From positions 12,173 to 76,172 of the forward strand of contig CAZWKA010000006.1 in NCBI GenBank assembly GCA_964634875.1: DNA of 64,000 nucleotides. Direction: 5' to 3'. The notes under the pieces were generated by a model, which saw nothing but the letters and a program-made list of their open reading frames with translations, ran no database searches and was not told the origin of the DNA. Both the position numbers and the translations under genes were made by a program. This DNA is from an uncultured Gammaproteobacteria bacterium. GTDB taxonomy: Bacteria > Patescibacteriota > Patescibacteriia > Magasanikbacterales > GWA2-37-8. Shown here piece by piece: positions 6,097 through 56,243 of this stretch (positions are counted from its first letter, which is position 1; each line of letters begins with the position of its first letter).

Positions 6097-6122
6097 CATG
6101 CCTGGACCAAAAAGATGGTCTG

Positions 6123-6443
6123 CTAACCGGCGGCAGACAAAGGGGGTGGGGCAAAAGCAACGCCGTTCGCAATCAGGACAACCTCGGTGTCTTCGCCGTA
6201 GAACTCTTTTTCGACGGCCACGGCGGGAACGTTGAGGAGGAGGGCCAGTGCAGCAAGCTGAGAGCTGGAGATGAGGCTTGGATCTGTGTCTCCACAGAAG
6301 ATCTTGATGCGCTGTTCGTTGGGATCCTCAGAGACAATGCAGCCAGCTGCGAGCCAGGGTAGCAGTCTGCGGATGTCGTGTGCGAAGCTTGGTACTCTCA
6401 TGTCCACCGTACCCCTTTGTTGTGATATCGCGTATTTAGCCAC
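6123..6443 (-). CDS. Hypothetical protein in high-GC island 1
   Basis: 106-aa ORF preceded on the minus strand by TTGACA-18-TAAATA and an AAAGGGG Shine-Dalgarno. Confidence 0.4.
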   Translation of the reverse strand: MAKYAISQQRGTVDMRVPSFAHDIRRLLPWLAAGCIVSEDPNEQRIKIFCGDTDPSLISSSQLAALALLLNVPAVAVEKEFYGEDTEVVLIANGVAFAPPPLSAAG

Positions 6444-6573
6444 AAAAAAGGTGGTTTGTCAACCTTTTAGGCTATATTTGTGGCCCTCAAACAGCTTTTG
6501 TAATTATGCGTAGTGTCTAAAAATGAAAGCCCGGGCGCTCGAGGGAGCGCTCCGGGGAAGGGGTTGGTCGTGG

Positions 6574-7155
6574 TTATTGAGCCATGGAGCAGCTGTCGAG
6601 CGTGTGGAAGCTGGTTGCTCCCGGCCCGATTTCGATGAGGATCCGTTGTGTGCTCCGCGAATCCTTCATCCAAACAGTCTGGCTATTGCCGTGAACCATG
6701 ATGGCCGGGTGGCGGCAGGTAAAGAACCCGATCGGCACGTAGTCGTCGATGGGGTGCATGCTGTATTCGCTCTGCGGGCGCGGGGACTCTCCGCACTCAA
6801 CGACAAAAGACTCCTCTCCTGCATGCCGCGTCTGATCCAGGTCATACTGGATTCGCAGCTGGCCGCTGGGGCAGCTGTGCCAGTTGAAGAAGCTGTCGAC
6901 CTGCTTGCTCACGACCACCAGCTGCAGGGCGCCGACGAGCGTCTCGAGAGGGCGGATGGTGGCCGCACCAATGGCCGCTTCGGACGTATCGTGTGGGGCA
7001 AGCGCACGGAGCGTGGGGTGGCCCGGCGTCTCAACGGGTGCAGACACTTCTTCGGTTACCGGGCTCGCAACCTCGGTCTGTGCAGGTGGACGTGCCGGCG
7101 TCGTAGTGGCGCAGGCGGCCAACAAGGCGGAGCAAAGGATCAGACGTGTGTACAT
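6574..7155 (-). CDS. Predicted lipoprotein in high-GC island 1
   Basis: Signal peptide with lipobox LLAAC; GGAGG Shine-Dalgarno 5 nt before ATG; ~62% GC. Confidence 0.55.
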   Translation of the reverse strand: MYTRLILCSALLAACATTTPARPPAQTEVASPVTEEVSAPVETPGHPTLRALAPHDTSEAAIGAATIRPLETLVGALQLVVVSKQVDSFFNWHSCPSGQLRIQYDLDQTRHAGEESFVVECGESPRPQSEYSMHPIDDYVPIGFFTCRHPAIMVHGNSQTVWMKDSRSTQRILIEIGPGATSFHTLDSCSMAQ

Positions 7156-7230
7156 GACATCCTCCTAATCAGGACATTTGTGGCAGCAACCCTTTCACAA
7201 AAAACGTTTTTTGTCAAGGGTTTTAGCTAA

Positions 7231-7262
7231 AAAAAGAACGCCGAGAGGCGTTCTTTTGGGTG
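7231..7262. terminator. Terminator downstream of hppA
   Basis: aaaaaagaacgcc-gaga-ggcgttctttt. Confidence 0.55.
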
Positions 7263-7271
7263 CGAGGGGTT

Positions 7272-9263
7272 TTATTTTAAGAGCAGTCCGACAATGAGTA
7301 AGGCTACGATATTGGCAACTTTGATCATTGGGTTAATCGACGGGCCAGCTGTATCTTTGTATGGGTCGCCAACCGTGTCACCAGTAACCGCTGCTTGGTG
7401 AGCAAATGAGCCTTTGCCGCCGTAGTTACCTTTTTCAATGAATTTTTTAGCGTTGTCCCAAGCGGCACCTCCGGTAGTCATAGAAATAGCAAGGAAAATA
7501 CCAGTAATAATCGTGCCGACCAGGAGGCCGCCCAGCGCCGGGATGCCCAGAAAAACGCCAACCAAGATTGGGGCAGCGACCGGTAAGAGAGCAGGAAGGA
7601 TCATTTGTTGTAGAGCGCCTTTGGTAACGATGTCAGCGGCGCGGGCGTAATCTGGTTTATTGGTGCCCTCCATAATACCAGGAATTTCTTTGAACTGGCG
7701 GCGGACTTCTTCAACAACCTGGCCAGCAACCTTGCCGACTGATTCCATGAGCATGGAACCGAACAGGTATGGTAACAAGCCGCCGATAAAGAGGCCGACC
7801 AAAACTTTCGGATCATTGATTAAGAAAACTGTTGAAGCGGGAAGTTGGTGGGTAAAGTCAGCGAACAAAACGAGTGATGATAAGCCTGCTGCCGCAATCG
7901 CATAGCCTTTCGTAACGGCTTTGGTGGTGTTGCCAACGGCGTCCAGGGGGTCAGTAACAGCTCGCACGCTTTCTGAAAGTTCGGCCATTTCGGCAATACC
8001 GCCGGCATTGTCGGTGATGGGGCCATAGGCATCAATAGTGACGACGATCCCGGTCATCGAAAGCATGCTGACTGCAGCAATCGCAATTCCAAACAAGCCT
8101 GCCAACCAAAACGAACCGAGCATGGCAGCCAAAATGAGGAGTACGGGGACGGCGGTAGATTTCATGGAAACAGCGAGTCCAGCAATAATGTTCGTGCCAT
8201 GTCCGGTAGTACTTGCTTTAGCAATATGTTGGACTGGTGAGTATTCGGTAGAAGTGTAGTAGTCGGTAACAAATACCATGGCAAGCGTCAGGGCGAGACC
8301 GATAACCGCTGTGCCAAAAAGGTGCATAACCGAGAAGCCCGGTAGTCCGCTCAAGAGCCAGCGAGTGATGGGGTAAAAGGCAACTAAAGAAAGGACGCCT
8401 GCAGCGATGAGGCCTTTGTATAAAGCTCTCATGACATTCTTGTCTTTGCCGAGGCGAATGAAAAACGTGCCAATGATTGAAGCGATAATCGAGGCGCCGC
8501 CCAACATAAGCGGAAACACGACCGCCTTGGTGTTGCCAGGGAACAAAAGGCTGGCGAGGAGCATGGCGGCGATTGTTGTAATGGCATAAGTTTCAAAAAG
8601 ATCGGCAGCCATACCAGCACAGTCGCCAACATTATCACCCACATTATCAGCGATGACGGCTGGGTTACGTGGATCATCTTCGGGAATGCCTTTTTCAACT
8701 TTACCAACCAGATCAGCACCCACATCGGCTGCTTTGGTGAAGATGCCTCCGCCGATACGAGCAAAGACAGAAACCAGGCTGCCGCCAAACCCAAGGCCAA
8801 TGAGCGCTGCAAGGTCGCCGTTCGTAACCAGATAAAAGCCAGCAACCCCCAAGAGACCAAGACCGGCAACCAGGAGGCCGGTAACCGAACCGCCGCGTAC
8901 GGCGAGGTTAAGTGCTTCTTTAAAACCAAGTTTGGCTGCTTCGGCAGTACGGACATTGGCTTTGACCGAAATCATCATCCCAACATAGCCAGCCAAACAA
9001 GAAAAACCAGCCCCTACAATGAAGCCAAAGGCTGTGATCCAGTCTAGTCCGAGGCCGATGACAAGAAAGATGACCGCTGCTACCACCCCGATCGTTTTAT
9101 ATTGTCTGAAGAGATACGCTTTAGCACCGGTTTGGATGGCGCGAGCAATCATTTGCATTCGTTCGTCTCCGGCTGGTTGGCGCAGAACCCAGCGGATTAA
9201 GATAAGACCATAAAGGATGGCCAGAACTGCGGGAACGATTGCTCCCAAAACGATGATGAGCAT
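7272..9263 (-). CDS. hppA: Membrane-bound proton/sodium-translocating pyrophosphatase
   Basis: 663 aa polytopic protein with V-PPase motifs (..GDNVGDCAG.., [25 protein letters not shown]). Confidence 0.95.
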
Positions 9264-9299
9264 AAAAACAATGCTTAAATTAAAGGTAAAAATAGATTG

Positions 9300-9335
9300 A
9301 TTTGCCCCCTATACTATGGTAAACTCTCCAAATAG
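9300..9335 (+). promoter_or_regulatory. Putative sigma70-type promoter for the M23 peptidase gene
   Basis: TTGATT-17-TAAACT upstream of the ATG at 9347. Confidence 0.4.
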
Positions 9336-9346
9336 TCAAGCAAACT

Positions 9347-10666
9347 ATGAAATACGGAGTTTGGTTAAGATTTCTTAAAACCTTGGTTTACGGCAAGCGC
9401 CTGTTCTGGTTCTTTGGAGCTGGAATTTCTTTTGTTTTAGCCAAAACAATCGGTGGTATTGGTCGGACGCTTTTGTTTGTTCGCTACAAATTTTTCTATT
9501 TTCTTAAAAAATCAGGTCTTAATCGCGTTCGGGCACTCCTGCTTACGCGTGGCGTGCTCCAAGTAGTGGGTTTTGCAGGGCTTTTTTTGGTCGGCTTTCC
9601 CCAAAGCAAGTTGTATGCTGAAAAGGATTTGTTCTTGCCGGGCCAAAAGACTATCGCCTATGCCCTTACTGCTCCCCAGGAAATCCGTGGTATCGAGGAA
9701 GAAAACGCCGACGCGATAGTTTTTAATCCGTCTAATAGTTCGTGGCGTGAAGGCGTTATTGATGCCGAGACTTTGCCGAGTTTGGGTGTTAATTTTGTAG
9801 CCAACCAAGATTTTGCTGCTATTATGGCAGGTGGGACGGCACTGAGTAAGCCGTCTATTATGCCCGGTGTTACCCTGGCTGGCAGACGTAACCAGGTTGA
9901 AAACTATGCGGTTGAGCCTGGCGATTCCCTAAGCAGTATTGCGTATGATTTTGGTGTCAGTGTGGCTACGATTCTTTGGCAAAACAACCTGGGGGTTCGC
10001 TCGGTGCTGCGCCCAGGTGATGTGCTCAAAATTCCACCGACCACCGGTGTTATGCACACAGTAAAGCGCGGGGACACGATCAATAAAATCGCACTGCTCT
10101 ATGAAGCTAAAGAAGAGGATGTGGTAGGTTTTAACCGTCTACAAGCGGATGGAAGTGATCTGAAGGCCGGTGAATTAATCATGGTGCCTGACGGTATTAA
10201 GCCTGAAGCTCGTGCGGTCGCTACTGTCCCGCGCACTACAGGCACGATTGCCAAGGTTGCTGCGCCGCCGTCTTCACGTCAAGCGGCCGGTTCTTCGGGG
10301 TATATTTGGCCTTCTGGTGCCCACACAATCACACAGTACTTTGGCTATACGCACCACGCGCTTGATATCGCCGGTCCTTTTGCAACTCCAAACTACGCCG
10401 TGAAGGCGGGTAAAGTTGAAAAATCACAATGCGGCTGGAATAGCGGGTATGGTTGTGTAATTATTATTGACCATGGCGGGGGTGTCAAAACGCTGTATGG
10501 TCATCACTCTAAGCTCCTGGTCAGTGTCGGCGATCGGGTCGACGCCGGTCAAACCATCGGTCTCATGGGAAACACGGGCAATGTCCGTGGTGTTACCGGT
10601 ATCCATCTTCACTTTGAGATCATTATTAACGGTGTCCGGGTAAATCCGCTTGGCTACGTCAGATAG
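9347..10666 (+). CDS. LysM-domain peptidoglycan-binding M23 metallopeptidase (membrane anchored)
   Basis: N-terminal TM segment, two LysM repeats (..GDSLSSIAYDFGVSVATI.., ..GDTINKIALLYEAKEEDV..), C-terminal M23 motifs HALDIAG...HLHFEI. Confidence 0.9.
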   Translation: MKYGVWLRFLKTLVYGKRLFWFFGAGISFVLAKTIGGIGRTLLFVRYKFFYFLKKSGLNRVRALLLTRGVLQVVGFAGLFLVGFPQSKLYAEKDLFLPGQKTIAYALTAPQEIRGIEEENADAIVFNPSNSSWREGVIDAETLPSLGVNFVANQDFAAIMAGGTALSKPSIMPGVTLAGRRNQVENYAVEPGDSLSSIAYDFGVSVATILWQNNLGVRSVLRPGDVLKIPPTTGVMHTVKRGDTINKIALLYEAKEEDVVGFNRLQADGSDLKAGELIMVPDGIKPEARAVATVPRTTGTIAKVAAPPSSRQAAGSSGYIWPSGAHTITQYFGYTHHALDIAGPFATPNYAVKAGKVEKSQCGWNSGYGCVIIIDHGGGVKTLYGHHSKLLVSVGDRVDAGQTIGLMGNTGNVRGVTGIHLHFEIIINGVRVNPLGYVR

Positions 10667-10735: not shown

Positions 10736-10762
10736 TGAGTTTTACATTTTAAGCTTCTATCG

Positions 10763-10834
10763 AGGCCTGGGCGGGAATCGCACCCGCGCATAAGAGTTTT
10801 GCAGACTCCTGCCTTACTACTTGGCTACCAGGCC
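10763..10834 (-). tRNA. tRNA-Cys (anticodon GCA)
   Basis: Hand-folded cloverleaf: acceptor GGCCTGG/CCAGGCC, anticodon stem GGAGT/ACTCT, loop CTGCAAA, T-arm GCGGG..CCCGC; no encoded CCA. Confidence 0.75.
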
Positions 10835-10928
10835 GGTACACCTTGAGTTGCGCACTTAGGATACCATAACGACCCTTTCATTTCAAGGCTCTCGCGTGCT
10901 AAGATGGGCACAGGCACATCCCAAGCAA

Positions 10929-10978
10929 ATTCAGCAGAGTAGGCAGAGTAAGTAAAATTACTCTGCCTACTCTGCTGA
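10929..10978. repeat. Perfect 21-bp inverted repeat (about 48-bp palindrome) in the polA 5' region
   Basis: tcagcagagtaggcagagtaa-gtaaaa-ttactctgcctactctgctga. Confidence 0.8.
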
Positions 10979-11004
10979 GTACTTACTCCGCTGTATTCAC
11001 TTTC

Positions 11005-13710: not shown

Positions 13711-13712
13711 AC

Positions 13713-13738
13713 CGCTAAAAAAGCGGTTTTTTCTTGTT
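13713..13738 (+). terminator. Intrinsic terminator after polA
   Basis: aaccgct-aaaaa-agcggtttttt. Confidence 0.6.
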
Positions 13739-13744
13739 TGTAGA

Positions 13745-13817
13745 CTTGACAAGTGGCTTGACAAGTTAATTTAATACTTGACAAGTGGCTTGACAAGTTA
13801 ATTTAATACTTGACAAG
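13745..13817. repeat. Array of five 9-bp palindromes CTTGACAAG in a 32-bp tandem repeat (putative operator array)
   Basis: Copies at 13745, 13757, 13777, 13789 and 13809; the last copy supplies the -35 TTGACA of the downstream promoter. Confidence 0.85.
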
Positions 13818-13838
13818 ATTCATTCTTTAGGATAATAT
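13810..13838 (+). promoter_or_regulatory. Near-consensus sigma70 promoter TTGACA-17-TAATAT
   Basis: TTGACA at 13810-15 and TAATAT at 13833-38, with the ATG at 13847. Confidence 0.6.
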
Positions 13839-13846
13839 AAAGACAT

Positions 13847-14890: not shown

Positions 14891-14905
14891 TATAATAATA
14901 AAAAA

Positions 14906-14935
14906 CCGTCCCAACAGCGGGGCGGTTTTTTATTT
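14906..14935. terminator. Bidirectional terminator
   Basis: aaaaaccgtccc-aacagc-ggggcggtttttt. Confidence 0.55.
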
Positions 14936-14974
14936 TCCTCACAACACAAAGAGTTGTAGTGTAGGGAAAGCGTG

Positions 14975-15010
14975 CCCGCGGGAACACAGGTTCCCGCGGG
15001 TGGGGGGGGG
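14975..15010 (-). repeat. GC hairpin plus G9 homopolymer (C9 in the sense of the downstream minus-strand gene)
   Basis: cccgcgggaac-acag-gttcccgcggg followed by g x9 at 15002-15010. Confidence 0.8.
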
Positions 15011-15031
15011 TAGATGTCTGCCGCGACGCGT

Positions 15032-15499
15032 TTAGTCGGGCTTGATCGTCGGGGGGTTGTGGTCGGTGACCACGATGGTGCAGTCGATGGGCGACTTCTT
15101 GGGATCGAGCAGTCGGCTTGTCCGCAGAGACCCCACGTTCGGCTCGTCCACGCCCATCGGGTCCCCGCACCGGAAGAGCTCGAAGGTGCTCTTCTTCCAG
15201 TCAGAGCCTGATCTGTCCGTCACGGGCGCGAAATAGAATTCGACCAACTGTCGGGCCGATTCCTGGACGCCGTAGTGCTCGACCGTGAACACCAGCTCCG
15301 TACCCGAGGCCTCGGTGTACTGCATGGCGACATCGGCAAAGTGGATGATCCGCCAGGGGTGCGGCGAGGTTGCGCTCAAAATGCCGAACGCGCTGGTCTT
15401 GGTTGAAGATCCTCGCTCGTCCAATTTGTTGGGCAGACCGCTGCTGCAACCAACAGTGAGTACGGCTGCAGCAAGACCAAATATCCGCAATTGTTTCAT
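15032..15499 (-). CDS. Predicted lipoprotein in high-GC island 2
   Basis: MKQLRIFGLAAAVLTVGCSS signal peptide with lipobox; the ORF-track start at 15544 lies upstream of the signal peptide. Confidence 0.55.
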   Translation of the reverse strand: MKQLRIFGLAAAVLTVGCSSGLPNKLDERGSSTKTSAFGILSATSPHPWRIIHFADVAMQYTEASGTELVFTVEHYGVQESARQLVEFYFAPVTDRSGSDWKKSTFELFRCGDPMGVDEPNVGSLRTSRLLDPKKSPIDCTIVVTDHNPPTIKPD

Positions 15500-15587
15500 C
15501 GTATTCTCCCCATGGCAAAGTGCCAGGCCAATACTGTCTAGCATGAAAAAGCCCGGTTGTCAACGGTAATTCAATAACAAAATTTTG

Positions 15588-15625
15588 CCTAAAGACTTGA
15601 CAAATAAGGGTGCGCAGGTAGGATG
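15588..15625 (+). promoter_or_regulatory. Putative promoter TTGACA-16-TAGGAT
   Basis: cTTGACAaataagggtgcgcaggTAGGAT, then an AAGGAG Shine-Dalgarno before the ATG at 15652. Confidence 0.4.
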
Positions 15626-15651
15626 GGTCAAACTATCACAAGGAGTCCGCC

Positions 15652-16089
15652 ATGAGAGCTTTATTTGCCGCTGCAGGTCTATTGGTTGCGTCCGGATGCA
15701 GTCTTGGTTGGGACTTTCTTTTCAGACAGAAGGAGGGCGTTGTCGATACTGAGCCTCTGCCCGCAGGTTCGCACGTCTATTGTACGGTCAAAGAAAATGC
15801 GGACGGAGGTAACCGCCCCTTCTTTATTAACAACGATCGGATCGCTTCTGGTCGGTGGCGGTACAGTGTTGAGGGCATGCTACTGTGTGAGTGTGAAGGT
15901 TGGCACCGTCTTAAGGTGTTTGCGTATGAGGACAGGCCGGTTGGCGAACGCAGCCGCATCGGCGACTATGTCTTCGTAGGCACCCGGAAACTTGAGGCAT
16001 TCAGTGTCGAGGTGCCGCCCGGCCTGAAGCCCGGCCAGTCATTCTGGCTCGAAGGCGAGTGTGTCGAAGACCTGCAGTCGACCAAATGA
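15652..16089 (+). CDS. Predicted lipoprotein in high-GC island 2
   Basis: MRALFAAAGLLVASGCS lipobox; AAGGAG Shine-Dalgarno. Confidence 0.55.
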   Translation: MRALFAAAGLLVASGCSLGWDFLFRQKEGVVDTEPLPAGSHVYCTVKENADGGNRPFFINNDRIASGRWRYSVEGMLLCECEGWHRLKVFAYEDRPVGERSRIGDYVFVGTRKLEAFSVEVPPGLKPGQSFWLEGECVEDLQSTK

Positions 16090-16099
16090 TTGATTAGAA

Positions 16100-16129
16100 A
16101 GCCGTCCGGTGATGCGACACCGGACGGCT
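16100..16129 (+). other. 12-bp perfect GC hairpin (HP1) in a 3' UTR
   Basis: agccgtccggtg-atgcga-caccggacggct. Confidence 0.8.
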
Positions 16130-16160
16130 ACCATCTCTCTACCCTTACAATTTTTTAAAT

Positions 16161-16194
16161 AAAAAACACCCTCGAATTTTCCGAGGGTGTTTTG
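16161..16194. terminator. A/T-flanked terminator (HP2)
   Basis: aaaaaacaccctcg-aatttt-ccgagggtgtttt. Confidence 0.6.
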
Positions 16195-16203
16195 TTACAA
16201 GTA

Positions 16204-18035: not shown

Positions 18036-18196
18036 AGCTAAAAACAGGGATGAACTGGCTAGAGTATAGCACGACCGTGTGAATTGTTAAATTGTTTCGT
18101 TGTTAGTGTACGGTTTTTTGATTACGAAACCGAGAAATAAAAACCACCATTGCCTTCTGCCCCACGTCAGTATATGATACGCGCCAGTAGTCGTTT

Positions 18197-20046: not shown

Positions 20047-20050
20047 AGTA

Positions 20051-20085
20051 AAAAAATCCTGGTCGCTTGAGGGCGACCAGGAGGA
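20051..20085 (-). terminator. Terminator downstream of rpsT
   Basis: Minus strand reads cctggtcgc-cctcaa-gcgaccagg then atttttttta. Confidence 0.55.
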
Positions 20086-20100
20086 AGTATACCAGGAAAA

Positions 20101-20542: not shown

Positions 20543-20905
20543 ATGAAACGTTCGCACGTCGCCCTCCTGGCCCTTTCTCTGCCTGCTTGCGTAGCCGGTC
20601 CTCTCTCGCTCCGCCCGGGCGTGGCGCCCGAGACCTGCTACCAGGCCAGCCAGCGCTTCGCCTGGGCGCCCGACTCCCGCAGGTGGGTCGCTTGCTTGCC
20701 GGACAATGGTGCGGTGACCAAACAGGGATACCGCCTGAAGATGGCCTTCGTCCCTGGCGACAACGGTTGTCGCCTCGAGGCTGCCCCGGACAACGGTCTT
20801 CACTCGCGGCTCTGGCCCAATGTTCCCACGGCTAACATCGATGACACCGGCGAGATGCCGTTCGCTGTCGATGGACAGCCCTACGTCTGCAAGATCGAGA
20901 ACTAG
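20543..20905 (+). CDS. Predicted lipoprotein in high-GC island 3
   Basis: MKRSHVALLALSLPACVAG lipobox; GAGG Shine-Dalgarno; promoter TTGACA-17-TATGTA at about 20454-20482. Confidence 0.55.
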   Translation: MKRSHVALLALSLPACVAGPLSLRPGVAPETCYQASQRFAWAPDSRRWVACLPDNGAVTKQGYRLKMAFVPGDNGCRLEAAPDNGLHSRLWPNVPTANIDDTGEMPFAVDGQPYVCKIEN

Positions 20906-21035: not shown

Positions 21036-21446
21036 ATGAAAGACAGTCGTTTACTCGGCAAAATTCTGTTCGTCCTCCTGTCTGCCTGTGCATCACAACC
21101 GCCGATCGTGTCTTCGCCTGTATCCAGCAGCCAACCCCAGGTGGAGCTTGCTTCAAACCAGTTGGTTGAGCCTCCAGATGGCTGTGCCGGTGATCGTGAG
21201 CGCCTTGGTACGTCGGTCGCTGGCGTGGGTACAATCTGTCGTTCCAGCCGGGATCAGTTCCCCCTCTTTATTAAGCTGACAGCCGAGGAAGATGGCTGCC
21301 GCCTTGTCACCAAGGTCTATCGCGGTGAAGAGGAGGTGCTTCATCTCAACACGCTGGCGAGCGAGATCGTGAAGAAGGGGTCGGCATACCATCTTTCAAC
21401 GAACCAAGAAAATTTTGTCTGCGAATCAGTGCGGTCGGAGGAATAA
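21036..21446 (+). CDS. Predicted lipoprotein in high-GC island 3
   Basis: MKDSRLLGKILFVLLSACAS lipobox; AAGGAG Shine-Dalgarno; a sixth CTTGACAAG copy at 20977-85 forms its -35. Confidence 0.55.
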   Translation: MKDSRLLGKILFVLLSACASQPPIVSSPVSSSQPQVELASNQLVEPPDGCAGDRERLGTSVAGVGTICRSSRDQFPLFIKLTAEEDGCRLVTKVYRGEEEVLHLNTLASEIVKKGSAYHLSTNQENFVCESVRSEE

Positions 21447-22901: not shown

Positions 22902-23489
22902 ATGTGTGATCGTAACAAACTGCCTTCGGGAAACACTGGTGAAGAACGAGACTTCTGGGACTGGGTGGGTGCTGCTTACGCCAACCTGCTCGTCGACCAC
23001 GACGAAGTTGTCTTTCCTGTCTCGTTCGAGTGGTTGGTGTGCGATGAGGGTGAGGTAATCTACGGGTTCGAGTTGCTCGCTGACGACACGCTCATTTCAA
23101 CGCCATCTTCCGGCAACCCGCTTGGCAAAACGTATGAAGAACGCCTCTTCTGGAGTTGGGTTCGAGATGTCTACTACGATGTTCTCGGCCAGGTCTTTTT
23201 TGATCGTTTTCGTGTGGAACGCTTGAAGCCCGTTTCGACTCCGGGAGTTGGAGAGGAGGAGTGGTTTTATGAGCTGCTAACCGGTACGTGGATCAAACCC
23301 GTACCCGTCGAGGAACTCCGTCTCGCTGAGGCGGTACCGTTGTCTACTGATGACGTAGTTACGGGCCCGAAGCAGATCTTCTACATCCAGAACCAGGCGC
23401 CTGCCAAGCCGGATGGACCGCCTGCCCCCTTCCACTTCGTAGGACGCATCGTCCTCATGGGCGATAAATACGTCCTTGCTCAGGAGTGA
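22902..23489 (+). CDS. Hypothetical protein with an internal duplication (moderately high GC)
   Basis: Repeated motif EERDFWDWVGAAYANLL / EERLFWSWVRDVYYDVL; no known domain recognised. Confidence 0.5.
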   Translation: MCDRNKLPSGNTGEERDFWDWVGAAYANLLVDHDEVVFPVSFEWLVCDEGEVIYGFELLADDTLISTPSSGNPLGKTYEERLFWSWVRDVYYDVLGQVFFDRFRVERLKPVSTPGVGEEEWFYELLTGTWIKPVPVEELRLAEAVPLSTDDVVTGPKQIFYIQNQAPAKPDGPPAPFHFVGRIVLMGDKYVLAQE

Positions 23490-23496
23490 ACAAAAC

Positions 23497-26507: not shown

Positions 26508-26774
26508 ATGAAGATCCTTAAGGAAGGCCTCTGGAAGAATCCCTGGAGCCACGAGTACGTGTGCAGTGAAAAGGATTGCGCAGCGACGCTCCTCGTCGAG
26601 GAGGCGGATCTGTCCGCGCCCAGCCGATATGACAACGAGGCTGGTCGGTACGAATTCACGTGTCCTATTTGTAGCAAGAAGAACAATGTGGCGGCCAAGG
26701 AAATTCCCCTTCGGATTAAAGAGCTGCTCGACAAGAAGCGGACAGTCAACCGTTCTTGGACGAGTGATCGGTAA
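26508..26774 (+). CDS. Small zinc-ribbon-like protein
   Basis: CSEKDC....CPICSKKN four-Cys arrangement; 88 aa. Confidence 0.45.
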   Translation: MKILKEGLWKNPWSHEYVCSEKDCAATLLVEEADLSAPSRYDNEAGRYEFTCPICSKKNNVAAKEIPLRIKELLDKKRTVNRSWTSDR

Positions 26775-27056: not shown

Positions 27057-27108
27057 TATGTAGTGGAACGGCAGCTTGAAAGATCGATCTGGTGTTCCAC
27101 TACATATC
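27057..27108 (+). other. 14-bp perfect inverted repeat with a 24-nt loop in the operon leader
   Basis: atatgtagtggaac...gttccactacatat, just before the Shine-Dalgarno and the ATG at 27122. Confidence 0.75.
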
Positions 27109-27121
27109 ACAAGGAAAACCT

Positions 27122-27634
27122 ATGAGCCTCTACACTGTCCAAGAAATCGTGATCGGTTCTGATGCTGTACCCAAAGTGATGGCCGGCAAGCTCGCCTGCC
27201 CCAAAGACATCATCGTTGGCCATCCAGCCAAATCGCTGGTGAATAGGCAGCCCTGCGGCTTGAGCGAAATCAGGCAGGGTGCCTGCAACCGGCGGAAGGC
27301 CGCCCGTAAGGGTCGCCCCAGCGGTGACATCTGGATCGGTATCGAGAATGGTGTGGTGTGGCAAGGTGGTAAGTGGTTTGACCTGGCCGCCGTTGCCGGA
27401 TGTAACCGAGCAGGCCGTGAAGTGCTCGTCTGGTCGCTGGCGATCGAGATCCCCACGTGGGTGGTGACCGCAGTTAGAAGACACGGTTTCGATACGACGA
27501 CCATCGGTCTCATGTATGCGGGAGCTGTTAAAGGTGTTGATCACCAGGACATCCACGCTCACCTCACCAACGGCGCCCTGAAACGTGAACAGATCCTGGC
27601 CCAGGCCATCGTAGTCGTGCGGGCTCAGCTGTAG
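27122..27634 (+). CDS. yjjX: Non-canonical purine NTP phosphatase (inosine/xanthosine triphosphatase, YjjX/DUF84-like)
   Basis: SLVNRQPCGLSEIRQGACNRRKAARK....DIWIGIENG parallels E. coli YjjX SxVxxQPxGxxETRxGAxNRxxxAR...DFWVAIEAG. Confidence 0.65.
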   Translation: MSLYTVQEIVIGSDAVPKVMAGKLACPKDIIVGHPAKSLVNRQPCGLSEIRQGACNRRKAARKGRPSGDIWIGIENGVVWQGGKWFDLAAVAGCNRAGREVLVWSLAIEIPTWVVTAVRRHGFDTTTIGLMYAGAVKGVDHQDIHAHLTNGALKREQILAQAIVVVRAQL

Positions 27635-27676: not shown

Positions 27677-28717
27677 ATGCGTCGTAAGCAGAACATCATC
27701 CTCTACTTCCCGACGATGAAGAAGCTCGCCTACTCCATCGTTGCGAAGCTCCGCAGACTCAAGAACAATAAGTTCGTCGTGCGTGACCCCAAGATGTCTG
27801 AGTTCGCAGACGGGTCGCCGACGAGCGCGATCCCGAATGTCCGTGGCGCTGAGGTCACGGTGGTGGCAGACATGCAGGGTGAGCACCCCAGCATTGCCTT
27901 CATGCGGCTCGCCGAGATCCTCGACGCGCTTGAGCGGGCAGGTGTAGCTGCGGTCACGGTGGTGATGCCGTACCACAGTTTTTCTCGCTCCGATCGCAAG
28001 GCCAAGGGCCGCGAGTCGATCATGGTGGCTCGAATCGCGACTTTCCTCAAGACCTACAACACCCTCAAACGCATCATCACCATCGATCTCCACTCCGACC
28101 AAATCGAGGGGATGTACACTGGCATCAGTGTTACACACCTCTCCGGGTCGCTCATCTTCGCGCCGAAGTGCCGTCCCATGGCCAAGAAGTCCAAGGATCC
28201 GCTCGTCACGATCGCTGGGGACGTCGGTGGTGCTCGCCGGACGCGCAACACCGCTCGTCTTACTGGTGGTCACACAGTGATGATGATCATGGATAAGACT
28301 CGCCCCAAGAAGAACGAGGCCGAGATTATGGGAATTCTTTGTGACCGTAAGGTCGTCAAAGGACTTCAGGCGGTCATCTGCGATGATGTCGTTGATACCG
28401 CTGGCACTCTGGTTGGGGTCATCAAAGAGGCTAAGAAGATGCGGCTGCGGGCGACTACTGTCATGGCGACGCACGGTGTCCTATCACCAAGTAAGGGGAC
28501 GACAGCGATCAGCAAGCTGCGTGCGAGCGGTGTCACCAAGATCGTCCTCTCTGACACAATCCCCCTGTCGGCCGCGAAGAAGGCAGAGGCGGGCGCTTTG
28601 ATCGAAGTCGTCAGTTGCGCTGATCTGCTTGCCTCAACGTTGCATGCCATTACTACCCCGAATGGCAGCGTCAGCCGCCTCTACGACAATGCCCGCGCCG
28701 CCGCCAAGCGCGCCTAA
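27677..28717 (+). CDS. prs: Ribose-phosphate pyrophosphokinase (PRPP synthetase)
   Basis: DLHSDQIEGMY (cf. DLHA.QIQGFF), GDVGGARRTR, and the PRPP-binding loop ICDDVVDTAGTL. Confidence 0.8.
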   Translation: MRRKQNIILYFPTMKKLAYSIVAKLRRLKNNKFVVRDPKMSEFADGSPTSAIPNVRGAEVTVVADMQGEHPSIAFMRLAEILDALERAGVAAVTVVMPYHSFSRSDRKAKGRESIMVARIATFLKTYNTLKRIITIDLHSDQIEGMYTGISVTHLSGSLIFAPKCRPMAKKSKDPLVTIAGDVGGARRTRNTARLTGGHTVMMIMDKTRPKKNEAEIMGILCDRKVVKGLQAVICDDVVDTAGTLVGVIKEAKKMRLRATTVMATHGVLSPSKGTTAISKLRASGVTKIVLSDTIPLSAAKKAEAGALIEVVSCADLLASTLHAITTPNGSVSRLYDNARAAAKRA

Positions 28718-28740: not shown

Positions 28741-29292
28741 ATGAGCAATATGATAGCTCACTACCTGTCCCAGTTTCTCGAACCTATCCTGGACTTTCCG
28801 CGGCCAGGCATCGTGTTCCGCGACATCAGCCCCCTGCTCCGCAACCCCGAGGCCAAGGAGACGTGCTTCCTCGAGATGGGCCGTCAGCTCGAGCAGGCGG
28901 GCATCGGCTTCGACCTGGTCGGGATGATCGACGCCCGCGGCTACATCTTCGGCGAGCCCATCGCCCAGCGGCATCGTCGCGGCTCCATCATGGTGCGGAA
29001 AGCCGGTATGATGCCGGTGCGCAAGGGCGCCAAGCTCGTGCGGAAGTCGTATGGTCTTGAGTATGGCACGAGCACCATCGAGATGCAGGACTACGCCGTC
29101 GAGAAGGCTCAGCGGGTCCTCATTGTCGACGACGGCCTCGCGACCGGCGGCACGGCCAAGGCAACGGCTGAGCTCGTCGAGGAACTTGGTGGTATCGTCG
29201 CCGGCTTCCTCTTCGTCTTCGAGATTGAGTCCTGTGGTGGACGACAGATGCTTGACGGCTACCAGGTCGTCAGCATCGTCAAGTTCCCGTAG
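28741..29292 (+). CDS. apt: Adenine phosphoribosyltransferase
   Basis: ILDFPRPGIVFRDISPLL.., VLIVDDGLATGGT PRTase motif; 183 aa. Confidence 0.85.
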   Translation: MSNMIAHYLSQFLEPILDFPRPGIVFRDISPLLRNPEAKETCFLEMGRQLEQAGIGFDLVGMIDARGYIFGEPIAQRHRRGSIMVRKAGMMPVRKGAKLVRKSYGLEYGTSTIEMQDYAVEKAQRVLIVDDGLATGGTAKATAELVEELGGIVAGFLFVFEIESCGGRQMLDGYQVVSIVKFP

Positions 29293-29295
29293 TTA

Positions 29296-30941: not shown

Positions 30942-31583
30942 ATGGCGATTTTACGGTATGATGAGGAGTTCAAGATTGAGAATGTCTCAATAGTGAACAG
31001 TCGTTCTTTCAAGGAGCAGTGTATGAGCTATAGTGTCAGTCAAGTTGCCGACCCGAGTGATATTGATCTCAAAGAAATACAGGAGAAGATAAAAGGTCTT
31101 GCTCGTGAGTTCGAATGGCTTGCCGGTGAAGGGGCGGAGATTCTGTCTCGCAATGAGCCACTCCCTTACGCTGTGTGGAGTGCTGTTTTTGCGAGAGTCA
31201 GCGATCTCGGACATGAGACGTGCTGGAGCTGCCCACTCCATATCGCGTATTTCGTGAAGGTCGTTGAACGCGGCATCAATGATTTACGCGCTCATCTTCT
31301 CAAACAAGGTCCTGGTGAGGAGCTGAACAGTGACTTCCAGCACCAGTGGTTCTGCAAGCTTTTGCGCCAGTTTGGCGGGGGCAACCTTGGTATCGGCTGT
31401 AGTCGTTTGGTGCCGAGCGAGCTTGCCGCCAACATGCTTGAGCTCCTGCGTACCCGGCTGGTCGAGGTCGTCCAGTGTAAGGACTGGCTTGTGAGCTTGT
31501 CGGTCGAGCGGTTTCGTGCGTTCGACCAGGAGGCGCGGGATATGTACGTAAAAAAGTACAGCGCACACTGGCCGACGAGGTAG
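30942..31583 (+). CDS. Hypothetical protein divergent from TrmB paralog 2
   Basis: 213-aa ORF with its own promoter-like TTGACA immediately upstream; I recognise no motif. Confidence 0.5.
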   Translation: MAILRYDEEFKIENVSIVNSRSFKEQCMSYSVSQVADPSDIDLKEIQEKIKGLAREFEWLAGEGAEILSRNEPLPYAVWSAVFARVSDLGHETCWSCPLHIAYFVKVVERGINDLRAHLLKQGPGEELNSDFQHQWFCKLLRQFGGGNLGIGCSRLVPSELAANMLELLRTRLVEVVQCKDWLVSLSVERFRAFDQEARDMYVKKYSAHWPTR

Positions 31584-51823: not shown

Positions 51824-52744
51824 TTAGGGACATGATTTAGTCCCAATCGTGAAGTCGACAGGAGGAAGCGTCTGTGCCACACCTGTTTCATCAAGGTATT
51901 CAACCTGCCAGAAGTAGCGAATACACCGTCCGGGATAGGCGTTCGACTTCGACGGCGGAAGAGCCTTGCGTGGAATCGTGAAGTAAGTGTGGATCACACC
52001 CGTTTTGGCGTATGTATCACACTTGTCTTCGATGTAGTTGCGGATTGGCTTTCCGTTCTCGTCAGCGTAGCTAACGGTGCCATTCTCGAACGTAGTCTCG
52101 GCCCAGAGCAGCGTGTGGAGGAGCTCTCGAGCCTGCCAGCCAAGCGATACACGTAGGGTGAAGCCTGTCGGCAGTTCGTAGCCGCAATCTACAGCTGGAT
52201 CCTGGGGTACCTCGACCACATTGTGTTCAAGTTCTGGTAGCCACCCGCCTTTGATTGGAACGGTGCGAGGCCACTCCACATCAACGAGGTCGAGGCGTTT
52301 ACCGCTTTTGAAGTCGAGTGTCCAGACGCCGCGTCGAGGACTGGCGTTCGTTGCGCTGCCAATCCCCACGCTCACGGCGAGCGGGTCGAAGATGTCGAGG
52401 CCGTGGTAGCCGTAGGCCAGATTGTTCAGAGCCCCTTCTGCATTGCAGTCAGAGCTCCAGCCGCAAAAGAACACGACGCCATTCTTGCCGGCTTGTTCCC
52501 CTTCCGGTGTATAGCCGGGCTGCCCCATCTTCTCTTTGTGCAAGGTGAGAGGGTCGGCAGTATCGATGCCGTTTACAGCCAGATACAAGGCATGGCTCCG
52601 TGTGCTGTTGCTAAGCTTTAGATCCAAAGGAAGTGGCTGTTGCCCCGCGGCATTCACTCGCAGCTCGTTAAGCAGCTCATGCATGGCTGATTCGTCTAGG
52701 GTGCAACCTGTCAGCGTAAGAAGAATCACGATAGATGCTTTCAT
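51824..52744 (-). CDS. Predicted lipoprotein (306 aa) in high-GC island 6
   Basis: MKASIVILLTLTGCT lipobox; GACGGAG Shine-Dalgarno; about 60% GC. Confidence 0.55.
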   Translation of the reverse strand: MKASIVILLTLTGCTLDESAMHELLNELRVNAAGQQPLPLDLKLSNSTRSHALYLAVNGIDTADPLTLHKEKMGQPGYTPEGEQAGKNGVVFFCGWSSDCNAEGALNNLAYGYHGLDIFDPLAVSVGIGSATNASPRRGVWTLDFKSGKRLDLVDVEWPRTVPIKGGWLPELEHNVVEVPQDPAVDCGYELPTGFTLRVSLGWQARELLHTLLWAETTFENGTVSYADENGKPIRNYIEDKCDTYAKTGVIHTYFTIPRKALPPSKSNAYPGRCIRYFWQVEYLDETGVAQTLPPVDFTIGTKSCP

Positions 52745-52993
52745 GACAATACTCCGTCAGAAAGTTGTTTTTATCCTTAAATCTATTAATTAAGGGCAAA
52801 AAAACTTTCTTACGAAGATGACTTGTAAAAAGAACGAACCGCTTATACTACACTATAATCGTCAAAAAGTCAAGGTTAAAGGCTTTCTCCATCGCTACCA
52901 ACCCATACGCTGAGTTGTTTGGGATGAGGCCGTTCGAACAAGGGGCTCCTTGTGCTGCCCGAAAGTATCGGGCAGCGAACGGCGGTTTCAGCA

Positions 52994-53437
52994 CTACTTG
53001 CGGAGTTGTGCTGTGGTGTGAAGGTCTGCGCTGAGAGAGTTGCCGCAGTTGGCCTGCAAAAACACGACAGAGCCGGGGATGACGCGATAAGCGCCGGCGG
53101 CCAAACTGAGCTCGAGCGTGGCACCGGGATCCGGGTTCGACCACGATGCGTGAGCGTGGTGGATGGCTTTCCCGGGCTTACTGCCGCGGTCCTCGTAGGC
53201 TTGGATCGATATCTGCTTACCGGAACACGATAGGTATCCAGCAATAGCATCTCCGGTAAGAACGGCATAGTGAAGGCCTTTGCCGGTCAAGGTAGGCCGG
53301 AGCTTCACTGTCTGATCGAGCACCACCAGAACTGCCACCGTATGAGCATCAATCTGGCGAGAGGCTGTGATCAAACACTGGTGGGCGCAGCCTGTGAATA
53401 GTCCGCTGAGAACAAGAGAGATCAACGGTTTGCGCAT
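52994..53437 (-). CDS. Predicted lipoprotein (147 aa) in high-GC island 6
   Basis: MRKPLISLVLSGLFTGCA lipobox; GGGAGG Shine-Dalgarno. Confidence 0.5.
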   Translation of the reverse strand: MRKPLISLVLSGLFTGCAHQCLITASRQIDAHTVAVLVVLDQTVKLRPTLTGKGLHYAVLTGDAIAGYLSCSGKQISIQAYEDRGSKPGKAIHHAHASWSNPDPGATLELSLAAGAYRVIPGSVVFLQANCGNSLSADLHTTAQLRK

Positions 53438-53684
53438 GTAATCCTCCCTGTGGCTATCGCCGAATGGCTGTTAAAATAGTGACAGGTTTAGATCCGAGTG
53501 TCAAACAAAATAAACTCGTAGTGAGGTTGGCTTTTTAGTGATCTAAAGTAAAATAAAGTCCAACATCCACGGCTGTAATAGTCAGTTTTGATTAGGCTTG
53601 TTGAAAGGGGTTGACTTTTTGACCAAAAGTGTTCTATCCTATATCGGACAGAAAACAGGTCTAAGTCCTTTCCAAGGAGGGGTG

Positions 53685-53990
53685 ATGCGATTTTTTTGTA
53701 GCGCGCTGATTCTGATGTCTTTAGCGCTGCCTGCGGATGCGAGGCAGCGAAGGAGGCAGACGAAACAAACGCAAACGAATTTGATCACTTGTCCGGACGG
53801 CTATCAGTTGGCCACGCATCGAGATCAGCAGATCGACATGATGCTGGGTTGCCGTCCGAATGATGGAAGTGAGTTGCAGGAGGGCAACAGCGTTACCATC
53901 AACTGTCCCGCAGGTCAGGAGGGGCATCTGCAAGAGACAATTCCCCGGCAACAGGGCTACCTCTACTGTCTGCCCGCATCCTCGCACTAA
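53685..53990 (+). CDS. Small secreted Cys-containing protein in high-GC island 6
   Basis: MRFFCSALILMSLALPADA signal peptide; GGAGG Shine-Dalgarno; promoter TTGACT-17-TATCCT. Confidence 0.45.
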   Translation: MRFFCSALILMSLALPADARQRRRQTKQTQTNLITCPDGYQLATHRDQQIDMMLGCRPNDGSELQEGNSVTINCPAGQEGHLQETIPRQQGYLYCLPASSH

Positions 53991-54002
53991 TCTGTGCGCC
54001 TT

Positions 54003-54033
54003 CGTTGAGGTCGGCGACTGTCCGACCTCAACG
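54003..54033 (+). other. 12-bp perfect GC hairpin (HP1)
   Basis: cgttgaggtcgg-cgactgt-ccgacctcaacg. Confidence 0.8.
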
Positions 54034-54052
54034 CTCTTAAAAATATTAAACT

Positions 54053-54082
54053 AAAACCGCTCTGTACTAACAGAGCGGTTTT
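54053..54082. terminator. A/T-flanked terminator (HP2)
   Basis: aaaaccgctctgt-acta-acagagcggtttt. Confidence 0.6.
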
Positions 54083-54091
54083 AGTTGTGTG

Positions 54092-54165
54092 TGGACCGTA
54101 CCGGGATCGAACCGGTGACCTCTTCCATGCCATGGAAGCGCGCTACCAGCTGCGCTAACGGCCCG
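54092..54165 (-). tRNA. tRNA-Ala (anticodon GGC)
   Basis: Minus strand reads GGGCCGTTAGCGCAGCTGGTAGCGCGCTTCCATGGCATGGAAGAGGTCACCGGTTCGATCCCGGTACGGTCCA; G3:U70 pair; anticodon loop ATGGCAT. Confidence 0.8.
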
Positions 54166-55528: not shown

Positions 55529-55583
55529 CGGCATCCTAGATTAAAAATCAATGTTTAAACATTGATTTTTTATTACCTCGAAA

Positions 55584-55612
55584 GCTTGACAAAAGAGTGT
55601 TTTTGTGCTATA
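55584..55612 (+). promoter_or_regulatory. Perfect consensus sigma70 promoter TTGACA-17-TATAAT
   Basis: gcTTGACAaaagagtgtttttgtgcTATAATgc. Confidence 0.65.
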
Positions 55613-55676
55613 ATGCTTTGTTTAGTCTATATCAAAATGGCTAATTTTAGCCACAAGGTTAACCTAAATCACGTTC

Positions 55677-55725
55677 AAAAGCTGGTTTTTGTGTGTATGT
55701 AGCGTACCTATAAAAACCAGCTTTT
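55677..55725 (+). other. 13-14-bp inverted repeat with a 21-nt loop in the leader of the 55758 ORF
   Basis: aaaagctggttttt...aaaaaccagctttt. Confidence 0.75.
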
Positions 55726-55757
55726 ACCCGGCGCAAGCCATTACCCAGGAGTCGTGT

Positions 55758-56084
55758 ATGCTCGTTTGTTCGTTGCGTAATCCTCCGCCCCAGTCCCTGA
55801 GCCCCTTCGGTGGTGGGCTCGTGACCCTCATCGGAGCAAAGCTCGAGTTCGAGTACCAGAGCAAGGGGTCGCGGCTGAAGGTCAGCTTGGCGAAGTACGG
55901 CCTCGCCCCCTACCGGCGCAAGGGGCCGCCGAGATCGAAGCTGATCGTCACGGTCAGCGAGATCATCGCCGACCAGTACGGCACCCGCGTCACAGGCACG
56001 TTTCAGCGTTGCCCTGGCGCCCTCCCAACGGTGGTGAGCGCTCGCCTGCCGACCGGCAGCAGCGTGCTCTGGAACATCGAGTAG
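55758..56084 (+). CDS. Small hypothetical protein in high-GC island 7
   Basis: AGGAG Shine-Dalgarno 7 nt before the ATG; followed by a C10-A8 tract and a hairpin plus T-run; overlaps an antisense ORF, so the strand call is tentative. Confidence 0.35.
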   Translation: MLVCSLRNPPPQSLSPFGGGLVTLIGAKLEFEYQSKGSRLKVSLAKYGLAPYRRKGPPRSKLIVTVSEIIADQYGTRVTGTFQRCPGALPTVVSARLPTGSSVLWNIE

Positions 56085-56093
56085 CGCTGCTCG

Positions 56094-56160
56094 CCCCCCC
56101 CCCAAAAAAAACGTGTTCTAACGACCCCTGCGGCTTCTGCCTGGGGGTCGCTCTTCTTTT
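56094..56160 (+). repeat. C10 then A8 homopolymer pair, then a GC hairpin and T-run
   Basis: cccccccccc-aaaaaaaa ... cgacccc-tgcggcttctgcct-gggggtcg-ctcttctttttt. Confidence 0.85.
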
Positions 56161-56243
56161 TTATATAGATTTTAAAACATCAAATTTTACAACCTGCTTG
56201 TTGACCTGATTAAGTTTTAAGTGATGTGCCTCTACAGTCGGTT

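Follow-up and report, generated by a model that had tools for sequence, protein, structure and literature searches.

The window analysed here is a 64,000-nt stretch of contig CAZWKA010000006.1 (positions 12,173 to 76,172 of the forward strand; assembly GCA_964634875.1), which belongs to a Magasanikbacteria-like member of the Patescibacteria. The original prediction, made from the letters of the window, had described at least seven or eight GC-rich islands of lipoprotein, secreted-protein and purine-salvage genes interspersed with core genes, and had attributed them to repeated acquisition from a high-GC donor, possibly an actinobacterial host. We analyzed the composition and gene content of these patches and their counterparts in related genomes. 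The eight islands comprise the following features, where GC3 is the GC content at third codon positions and the promoter motif is the T-rich-spacer motif TTGACA[AC]-N4-8-[CT]TTTT[TC].

Island 1, 6123..6443, minus strand: small open reading frame (ORF) with a likely start Met at 6401 and the lipobox-like LLPWLAAGC; GC 0.57, GC3 0.62; no Pfam or PADLOC match.
Island 1, 6462, minus strand: promoter motif TTGACAAACCACCTTTTTTG of the small ORF.
Island 1, 6574..7155, minus strand: 193-aa lipoprotein with a lipobox (MYTRLILCSALLAAC followed by A); GC3 0.75; gene called by NCBI; singleton 90% cluster.
Island 1, 7217, minus strand: promoter motif of the 193-aa lipoprotein gene, with a GGAGG Shine-Dalgarno site.
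Island 2, 14895..16195, no strand assigned: the entire island, a 1.3-kb insert between two terminator-like hairpins.
Island 2, 15032..15499, minus strand: lipoprotein with a lipobox (MKQLRIFGLAAAVLTVGC followed by S); GC3 0.75-0.76; promoter motif at 15563 (minus strand).
Island 2, 15652..16089, plus strand: 145-aa Cys-rich lipoprotein (MRALFAAAGLLVASGC followed by S); GC3 0.59; TTGACA-16-TAGGAT at 15597; singleton cluster.
Island 3, 20543..20905, plus strand: 120-aa secreted protein (LSLPAC); GC 0.65, GC3 0.78; promoter motif at 20456.
Island 3, 21036..21446, plus strand: lipoprotein (MKDSRLLGKILFVLLSAC followed by A); GC3 0.59; promoter motif at 20978; AAGGAG Shine-Dalgarno site.
Island 4, 22902..23489, plus strand: 195-aa protein without a signal peptide; GC3 0.62; promoter motif at 22754.
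Island 4, 23504-23528: T-tract terminator; a tRNA-Arg gene (23644) lies just downstream of the 195-aa gene.
Island 5, 26508..26774, plus strand: 88-aa zinc-ribbon-like protein (CxxC...CPxC); GC3 0.67.
Island 5, 27092..27634, plus strand: NTPase_I-T, ITPase/XTPase-like (PF01931); GC3 0.66; TTGACA-17-TATAGT at 26965.
Island 5, 27677..28717, plus strand: divergent ribose-phosphate pyrophosphokinase (PRS; TIGR01251); GC3 0.73.
Island 5, 28741..29292, plus strand: adenine phosphoribosyltransferase (APRT; NF002636 equivalog); GC3 0.83.
Island 5, 29320-29394 and 29913-29987, plus strand: 75-nt direct repeats (family D9), 72% identical, with a U-tract terminator in each.
Island 5, 29461-29847, plus strand: secreted-protein gene inside the D9 pair; signal peptide of the signal peptidase I (SPase-I) type; GC 0.54.
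Island 6, 30942..31583, plus strand: cytoplasmic ORFan of 213 aa (or 186 aa); GC3 0.61; TTGACA-17-TATGAT at 30934.
Beside island 6, 30106-30894, minus strand: TrmB gene, divergent from the ORFan.
Island 7, 51824..52744, minus strand: 306-aa lipoprotein with a lipobox and an N-terminal CAP/SCP (YkwD-like) domain; GC3 0.62.
Island 7, 52994..53437, minus strand: 147-aa lipoprotein with a lipobox (LSGLFTGC followed by A); GC3 0.65; singleton cluster.
Island 7, 53685..53990, plus strand: small secreted Cys-rich protein with signal peptide MRFFCSALILMSLALPADA; adjoins tRNA-Ala(GGC) at 54091-54164 (minus strand).
Island 8, 55586..56151, plus strand: the entire island, between the convergent ychF and ABC-F genes.
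Island 8, 55689 or 55758 to 56084, plus strand: ORF with GC3 0.80.
Island 8, 55586-55614 and 56130-56151: perfect consensus promoter and T-tract terminator, respectively.

All eight patches were recovered by 300-bp sliding windows with a GC content of at least 0.55 (6101-7250, 14851-16150, 20401-21400, 23151-23500, 27051-29600, 31101-31650, 51901-54150 and 55651-56200), the whole window having 47.7% GC. In 500-bp windows GC reached 0.60-0.62 at 6501-7000, 15001-15500, 20501-21000 and 28501-29000, peaks that by our own arithmetic lie more than 5 standard deviations (SD) above the mean (binomial SD of about 0.022 per 500 bp), and fell to a minimum of 0.35 at 30001-30500. We compared 17 island ORFs, picked by GC3-based frame choice inside the patches, with 32 core ORFs. 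The island ORFs averaged 0.57 for GC, 0.60 and 0.45 for GC at the first and second codon positions and 0.674 for GC3 (range 0.53-0.83), as against 0.46, 0.55, 0.39 and 0.458 for the core ORFs, and the difference in GC3 was highly significant (Mann-Whitney p=7.5e-9). The predicted contrast in codon composition was therefore confirmed, and it extends to the first two positions; the predicted figure of 60-65% GC was somewhat high, the island coding sequences (CDSs) having 53-65%. Preference within two-fold codon families was flipped between island and core genes (AAG 0.68/0.26, GAG 0.68/0.26, TTC 0.68/0.22, ATC 0.71/0.34, respectively), and cysteine made up 2.5% of island residues versus 0.7% of core residues. 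The GC rise was restricted to coding sequence: the 25 spacers in and beside the islands had a mean of 42% GC (some 17-31%), native spacers 37% and island CDSs 57%. Core-gene GC3 stayed flat, at 0.43-0.46, from 0 to 4 kb away from the island edges. Such abrupt edges with no flanking gradient argue against a diffuse regional process, and GC-biased gene conversion spreading into the flanks was rejected as a diffuse process on this basis.

The island/core junctions were identical (100%) in the independent Logan contigs L001 and L002, indicating that the patches are not assembly artefacts. Ten of the ORFs were looked up in public records; seven exactly matched genes called there, and all but one of these seven formed singleton 90% clusters.

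The predicted content of secreted proteins, lipoproteins and purine-salvage enzymes was borne out. Signal peptides were predicted from sequence on 10 or 11 of the 17 island ORFs, 7 or 8 of them with lipobox-like sites. A PROSITE-type lipobox was present in five island ORFs and in none of the 32 core ORFs; on inspection, two or three further island ORFs had looser lipoboxes and two had SPase-I-type signal peptides, while the island enzymes and three ORFans were predicted to be cytoplasmic. Signal peptidase II (LspA, PF01252) is encoded on contig L002 of the same genome. APRT scored 170.9 bits against NF002636 (cut-off 125). PRS scored 181.7 bits against TIGR01251 (cut-off 113) and also matched PF13793 and PF14572, but it stayed below the cut-off of all equivalog-level models, which marks it as a divergent member. 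The NTPase_I-T gene product matched PF01931 with 70.1 bits (gathering score 25) and TIGR00258 with only 44 bits (cut-off 117). The 306-aa lipoprotein had a sub-threshold Pfam CAP match and, in an exhaustive HMMER search, remote CAP-domain matches named YkwD. The remaining island ORFs matched nothing in Pfam, NCBIfam or PADLOC, and PADLOC found no defence system among the island proteins. Pfam scans of the 17 ORFs revealed no integrase, transposase or other mobility gene, and PADLOC and NCBIfam added none. Of at least 60 direct-repeat families, the 20 largest were listed, and D9 was the only one of these that involved an island; the ORFs scanned contained no reverse-transcriptase domain, and no template/variable repeat pair resembling a diversity-generating retroelement (DGR) was found. 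An integron-like or DGR-like system was rejected, as the islands are not connected by any listed repeat family and neither an integrase nor a reverse transcriptase turned up.

We then considered the same positions, or slots, in related genomes, whose loci were obtained from a PolA search, from APRT and PRS matches (L054-L057) and from a YchF scan of metagenomes (L058-L109). The PolA search returned syntenic loci in metagenome-assembled genomes of Patescibacteria/Magasanikbacteria, PolA being 87% identical in L003, 86% in L005, 63% in L004 and in L009 (Ca. Magasanikbacteria GW2011_GWA2_37_8), and 53-58% in L007, L006 and L039. The core genes of L003 and L005 were collinear with the window at about 70-85% nucleotide identity, and the islands appeared as alignment gaps. 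Gene order and 86-97% protein identity to the window place L003 (CAZECR010000033.1) and L005 (CAZINT010000004.1) in the Patescibacteria; the label "uncultured Gammaproteobacteria bacterium" on these records is probably a taxonomic mislabel.

The gaps were GC-rich in the relatives as well, both in L005 (5201-6300, 0.57-0.58; 18101-18800, 0.56; 20001-20600, 0.60) and in L003 (8501-9500 and 10801-11600, 0.56-0.61). They contained other lipoprotein, secreted-protein or ORFan genes with GC3 of 0.70-0.79, to which the island proteins of the window had no tblastn or blastp similarity. Thus, slot 1 (between tig and the H+-PPase gene) had 57-58% GC and unrelated ORFs in L005; slot 3 (between S20 and RmuC) was GC-rich with different genes in L003, L005 and L057 (58-66% in L057); and the GC content of slot 4 (between RmuC and the tRNA gene) was 60% in both L003 and L005 and reached 72% in L057, none of the contents there showing detectable homology to the window gene. 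Slots 1, 3, 4 and 5 were filled and GC-rich in every relative examined. In L058 and L059, whose baseline is 40% GC, slot 7 held two lipoprotein genes each (GC3 0.72-0.89) beside the same tRNA-Ala and ychF genes, and although the flanks of the two contigs were 92-96% identical, the slot contents could not be aligned except in the promoter and signal-peptide region. The slot 7 filling of L104 was shorter, with 48% GC, and L060 was without the slot 8 filling. Three further pairs of lineages had GC3-rich genes (0.58-0.91) in common at 35-51% amino acid identity, their YchF proteins being 76-87% identical with GC3 of 0.27-0.38. Between genomes the slot genes varied in orientation and type, and not in sequence alone. 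The synteny comparison thus agrees with the prediction that the gene content of the patches differs between relatives, and does not support the idea that the islands are strain-specific foreign insertions, since slots 1, 3, 4 and 7 were GC-rich in relatives too, 40%-GC baselines included. The 37%-GC genome GW2011_GWA2_37_8 (L009) carries, at 9157-9762 and directly upstream of polA, a gene for a 202-aa secreted protein with 62% GC and GC3 of 0.82, indicating that the phenomenon is present in long-public candidate phyla radiation (CPR) genomes.

Strain-specific presence did hold for some units. Island 2, the 29461-29847 gene and an insertion at 24-25.5 kb were absent from the closest genomes. 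In place of island 2, which lies between two terminator hairpins, one bidirectional terminator is present in L003 and L005, the gaps there measuring 25 bp and 345 bp. Two copies of the 75-nt segment that includes the APRT terminator enclose the 29461-29847 gene, and L054, which is without the gene, has a single D9 copy. These doubled terminators suggest that new units seem to enter at terminators. The block 29989-32293 is also absent from L054, but it is ancestral to judge from its TrmB gene, which has a 69% ortholog in L057; there, the TrmB ortholog is followed by a different gene with GC3 of 0.80. Islands 4 and 7 adjoin tRNA-Arg and tRNA-Ala genes, a flanking repeat was found only at the 29461-29847 unit, and the other six patches adjoin no tRNA gene. 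The strain-specific insertion at 24-25.5 kb (24024-25567, 1.5 kb) lies directly downstream of tRNA-Ala(CGC), where L054 has only 50 bp. Its 498-aa product has no match in the Protein Data Bank (PDB), and its C-terminus resembles HicA only below threshold. The GC content of the insertion, 0.47, is normal, showing that accessory DNA here is not all GC-rich.

The largest island is inherited. L054 carries the NTPase, PRS and APRT genes and the 88-aa gene in the same slot, with GC3 of 0.67, 0.77, 0.84 and 0.78, respectively, and PRS also occupies that slot, with the same GC3, in the more distant L057, so that for island 5 both composition and context are conserved in the lineage, a result that the original prediction itself had named as speaking against it. 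Identity between L054 and the window was 77% for the 88-aa protein, 43% for the NTPase, 33% for PRS and 79% for APRT, and 75-97% for the neighbouring core gene products. Four-fold sites of core genes differed between the two genomes by 0.52-0.73 (mostly about 0.6, saturated) and those of APRT by 0.37, and the GC content of the operon at four-fold sites was about 0.7-0.8 in both. Since the operon kept its GC content while the four-fold sites of core genes became saturated, it is not the decaying relic of one old transfer. PRS of the window was nearer to that of L057 (46%) than to that of L054 (33%), while holA, S20 and RmuC gave the reverse order. Between L054 and L056, two strains of one species, there were no single-nucleotide polymorphisms (SNPs) over 1.6 kb of PRS and APRT (L054 8926-10552), as against 22-50 SNPs per kb in the flanking NTPase, LAGLIDADG and TrmB genes; this block resembles either a recent import by recombination or a gene-specific sweep. 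The incongruent PRS tree, the low four-fold divergence of APRT and the zero-SNP block point to homologous exchange among related lineages. Horizontal exchange thus does occur at island 5, the only patch at which homologous recombination among relatives was shown. Between its APRT and TrmB genes, at 10759-11118, L054 also carries a free-standing homing-endonuclease-like gene of the LAGLIDADG type; about 118 bp of its flank are left in the window (32294-32411, 87% identity).

No donor was found for these genes. The only close matches of APRT were itself and the L054 ortholog; the rest were 42-50% identical, the named sources being Clostridia, Elusimicrobia, Gemmatimonadota, Tissierellia, cyanobacteria, Chloroflexi and one archaeon, and none Actinobacteria. 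Apart from the L057 protein, all PRS matches were 32-39% identical and came from similarly mixed sources. Outside this group of genomes nothing exceeded 50% identity for APRT or 38% for PRS, and no named match was actinobacterial. The CAP lipoprotein (51824-52744), searched against all 1.84 billion representatives, had a best match of 35% identity and nothing above 36%. As weak negatives, scans of viral contigs with four island proteins found no relatives, and tblastn of two lipoproteins (6574..7155 and 15652..16089) against 72,556 plasmids found no match. These scattered sources give no support to a high-GC, actinobacterial or host donor. Furthermore, two of the three strain-specific units had GC3 of 0.54-0.59, against 0.83 in the shared APRT, so that the presumably youngest inserts are lower in GC3 than a shared gene, the order opposite to that expected from amelioration.

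The promoters and terminators do not look imported either. The T-rich-spacer motif occurred seven times in the window against 0.17 expected, and six of the seven copies lay at about -55 to -150 of the island genes starting at 6401, 7155, 15499, 20543, 21036 and 22902. The seventh, at 12739 on the minus strand, is antisense inside polA; it could have arisen by chance or act as an antisense promoter. Together with a TATACT -10 element the motif was also present in the relatives L066 and L103, and it lay upstream of GC3-rich genes in L074 and L076; TTGACAAAA was found at about -60 of the slot-3 genes of L003 and L005. Because this architecture recurs in relatives, we read it as the clade's own strong and general consensus promoter, and a role as a cassette-boundary mark was rejected. 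Island 8 has TTGACA-17-TG-TATAAT, matching the consensus at 12 of 12 positions, and GGAG-type Shine-Dalgarno sites precede nearly all island genes. A TTGACA promoter with a GGAGG-like Shine-Dalgarno site, predicted for each gene, was thus confirmed for most island genes but not for each. The predicted lack of U-tracts in the terminators holds for island 1 only, where a terminator scan found no T-tract terminator. T-tract hairpins follow or flank islands 2, 4, 5 and 8 (16193-16163 on the minus strand, 23504-23528, 29952-29984 and 56130-56151).

We propose, and consider about as probable as all other explanations together, that the patches are conserved flexible slots holding a clade-intrinsic, fast-turnover, GC3-rich gene class that consists largely of surface lipoproteins under diversifying selection. 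In this Magasanikbacteria-like Patescibacterium, each slot between core genes holds one to five short genes with G/C-ending codons, most of them encoding lipoproteins or small Cys-rich secreted proteins that are presumably located at the cell surface, and one slot holds the salvage operon. Relatives down to about 60-70% marker-protein identity have GC-rich genes in the same slots, unrelated or extremely diverged. The slot contents change or are exchanged several times faster than core genes, apparently by insertion and deletion at terminators and, at island 5, also by homologous recombination between strains and lineages. GC-richness would be a persistent property, maintained by continual resupply from a clade-internal circulating pool or by a bias at the level of the CDS, and host attachment or pressure from phages would probably place the surface proteins under diversifying selection. 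The sharp, CDS-limited edges fit cassette-like replacement from a GC-rich pool and speak against a diffuse form of biased conversion; a gene-specific bias would fit the finding that orthologs retain their GC3 past saturation. Several points weigh against this proposal. The comparison covered a few loci per relative rather than whole genomes, and the exhaustive homology search covered a single ORFan. Codon usage is shifted at all three positions with abrupt edges, as in inserted foreign DNA; PRS and the NTPase may have come as xenologs from donors not yet sampled; and no sign of a clade-internal pool was seen, the window ORFans having no detectable homologs in the slots of relatives. Finally, we know of no force that would hold GC3 at 0.7-0.9 in one bacterial gene class.

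Repeated recent acquisition from high-GC donors outside the CPR, such as an actinobacterial host, into integration hot spots with no amelioration since would explain the atypical GC at all codon positions, the reversed codon preference and the abrupt edges. The absence of island 2 and of the 29461-29847 gene from the closest relatives, the 75-nt direct repeat around the latter and the tRNA genes beside islands 4 and 7 are also as this scenario would have them, and, as the products are mostly ORFans, the donor could be unsampled. A recent transfer predicts, however, an identifiable donor, foreign regulatory DNA, strain-specific presence and the most foreign composition in the youngest units. 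Instead, APRT, PRS and the CAP lipoprotein carry no donor signal, the promoters are native consensus promoters in AT-rich spacers, the same slots are GC-rich across deep divergence, the GC3 of the operon stayed the same although synonymous sites are saturated, the ranking of units by GC3 is the reverse of what amelioration would give, and the islands yielded neither an integrase nor a transposase. We infer that the composition of the patches is not an un-ameliorated trace left by recent transfer from a high-GC host, actinobacterial or other, and regard the scenario as unlikely. An artefact, in which chimeric assembly or binning joined pieces of a high-GC contaminant to a CPR scaffold, is conceivable for a metagenome-assembled genome that occurs in one sample, but it is extremely improbable considering the junctions repeated in Logan contigs, the same slot pattern in at least six independent assemblies of relatives, and the structure of the patches as single genes with native promoters between syntenic core genes.

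A different possibility is that native, fast-evolving genes became GC-rich in situ through a gene-specific, G/C-favouring process that raises GC3, for which recombination-linked biased gene conversion, selection on mRNA or codon choice and a targeted mutator are candidates. Orthologs do keep high GC3 after synonymous saturation, the evidence for recombination falls exactly at island 5, and the low four-fold divergence of APRT is expected with synonymous-site constraint; moreover, the upstream region is conserved where the rest of the CDS is unrecognisable, both at slot 4 of L003 and L005 and, together with the signal-peptide region, in L058 and L059. By contrast, with no GC3 gradient in the flanks and with AT-rich spacers, tract-based conversion would need to stop at CDS ends. 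The slot genes also vary in orientation and type between genomes, and the repeats included no template/variable pair of the DGR kind. Selection at translation for codons ending in G or C was rejected, as S20 and tig, which are likely highly expressed, are not GC3-rich and the island proteins are fast-evolving. We regard an origin in situ as being as unlikely as a high-GC donor. Equally tentative, and in our estimate rather improbable, is the stronger form of our proposal, in which the whole clade, with its baseline of 37-48% GC, keeps a fast-evolving gene class at GC3 of 0.65-0.9 in fixed slots by means of a G/C-enriching mechanism specific to that class. Examples would be biased conversion tied to an exchange of cassettes driven by recombination, or else a system for targeted diversification; to our knowledge, no such mechanism has been described in bacteria.

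Other features of the window were recorded alongside the islands. Its compositional heterogeneity is bidirectional: low-GC stretches (0.35-0.39) lie at 13601-14600, 29901-31150 and 32151-33600 and encode regulators (one HATPase/STAS and two TrmB), and four TrmB-like or HTH regulators, at 13847, 25558, 30106 and 32542, adjoin islands. At 13744-13807 a 32-nt unit (ACTTGACAAGTGGCTTGACAAGTTAATTTAAT) is perfectly duplicated in tandem, which puts four TTGACAAG boxes upstream of 13847-14890, a low-GC gene of the HTH/HATPase/STAS-like (DUF4325) type. Three copies of the 20-nt palindrome TTGTTTCA(T/C)GTGAAACAATT surround the start of the TrmB-family gene 32542-33264 (32441-32710) and are likely an operator. 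Finally, 40755-46013 and 46095-51731 encode adjacent giant secreted paralogs of 1752 and 1878 aa with normal composition, which have 250-300-nt segments 71-79% identical to each other (repeat families D1-D4) as well as internal repeats with an 18-nt period.

Classical horizontally acquired genomic islands are recognized by atypical composition and codon usage, tRNA association, an integrase and direct repeats (PMC2704930). The patches resemble them in composition and codons, in the variable presence of some units, in that two of the eight lie beside tRNA genes and in that one unit is bracketed by a direct repeat. They differ in their size of 0.4-3.5 kb, in that no mobility gene was found, in their native promoters, in slots and composition conserved across the clade, and in that no donor was identified. 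Like the replacement flexible or "metagenomic" islands of Salinibacter (PMC2800850) and HIMB59 (PMC10734472), they have non-homologous content at the same locus. A cargo that is predicted to be mostly surface-exposed, the signs of recombination and the differences between co-occurring strains (L058 versus L059) are further likenesses. Replacement flexible islands, however, are 10-100-kb glycosylation clusters, and the patches are islets of one to five genes. The GC content of such flexible islands usually lies below that of the core genome. In the patches it instead exceeds the core value, and housekeeping salvage enzymes are encoded in one slot. Variable surface lipoproteins are also known from wall-less and spirochaetal bacteria, namely the Vlp/Vsa systems of Mycoplasma and the Vmp system of Borrelia. 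With these the patches share a 5′ and signal-peptide region that is conserved and a mature part that varies strongly (L058 versus L059), but neither paralog arrays nor silent cassettes turned up, nor did phase-variable repeats or invertible promoters, and the variation was seen between genomes.

In the part of PMC12455944 considered here, 83% of inferred transfers run from Patescibacteria to Patescibacteria and Actinomycetota donors are rare. The island-5 mosaic, as exchange among related CPR lineages, resembles this intra-phylum pattern; that part of the paper contains no report of slot-bound GC3-rich lipoprotein genes or of a persistent compositional class. A limited literature search likewise found no earlier account, for Patescibacteria, of a GC3-rich class of genes bound to slots.

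Atypical GC content is routinely taken as a sign of recent horizontal gene transfer (HGT), and in an episymbiotic CPR bacterium it suggests an origin in the host; here, that interpretation fails on comparative evidence. The composition goes with the slots and is retained from lineage to lineage. It follows that a native class of genes may inflate GC-based predictions of islands or HGT in Patescibacteria, such as genome fractions "attributed to HGT". Among the surface lipoproteins of these organisms, those that change fastest are found in the slots; they are obvious candidates for variation in host attachment or in phage receptors, and they offer concrete targets for metaproteomics and for population-genomic tests of what maintains their high GC content.

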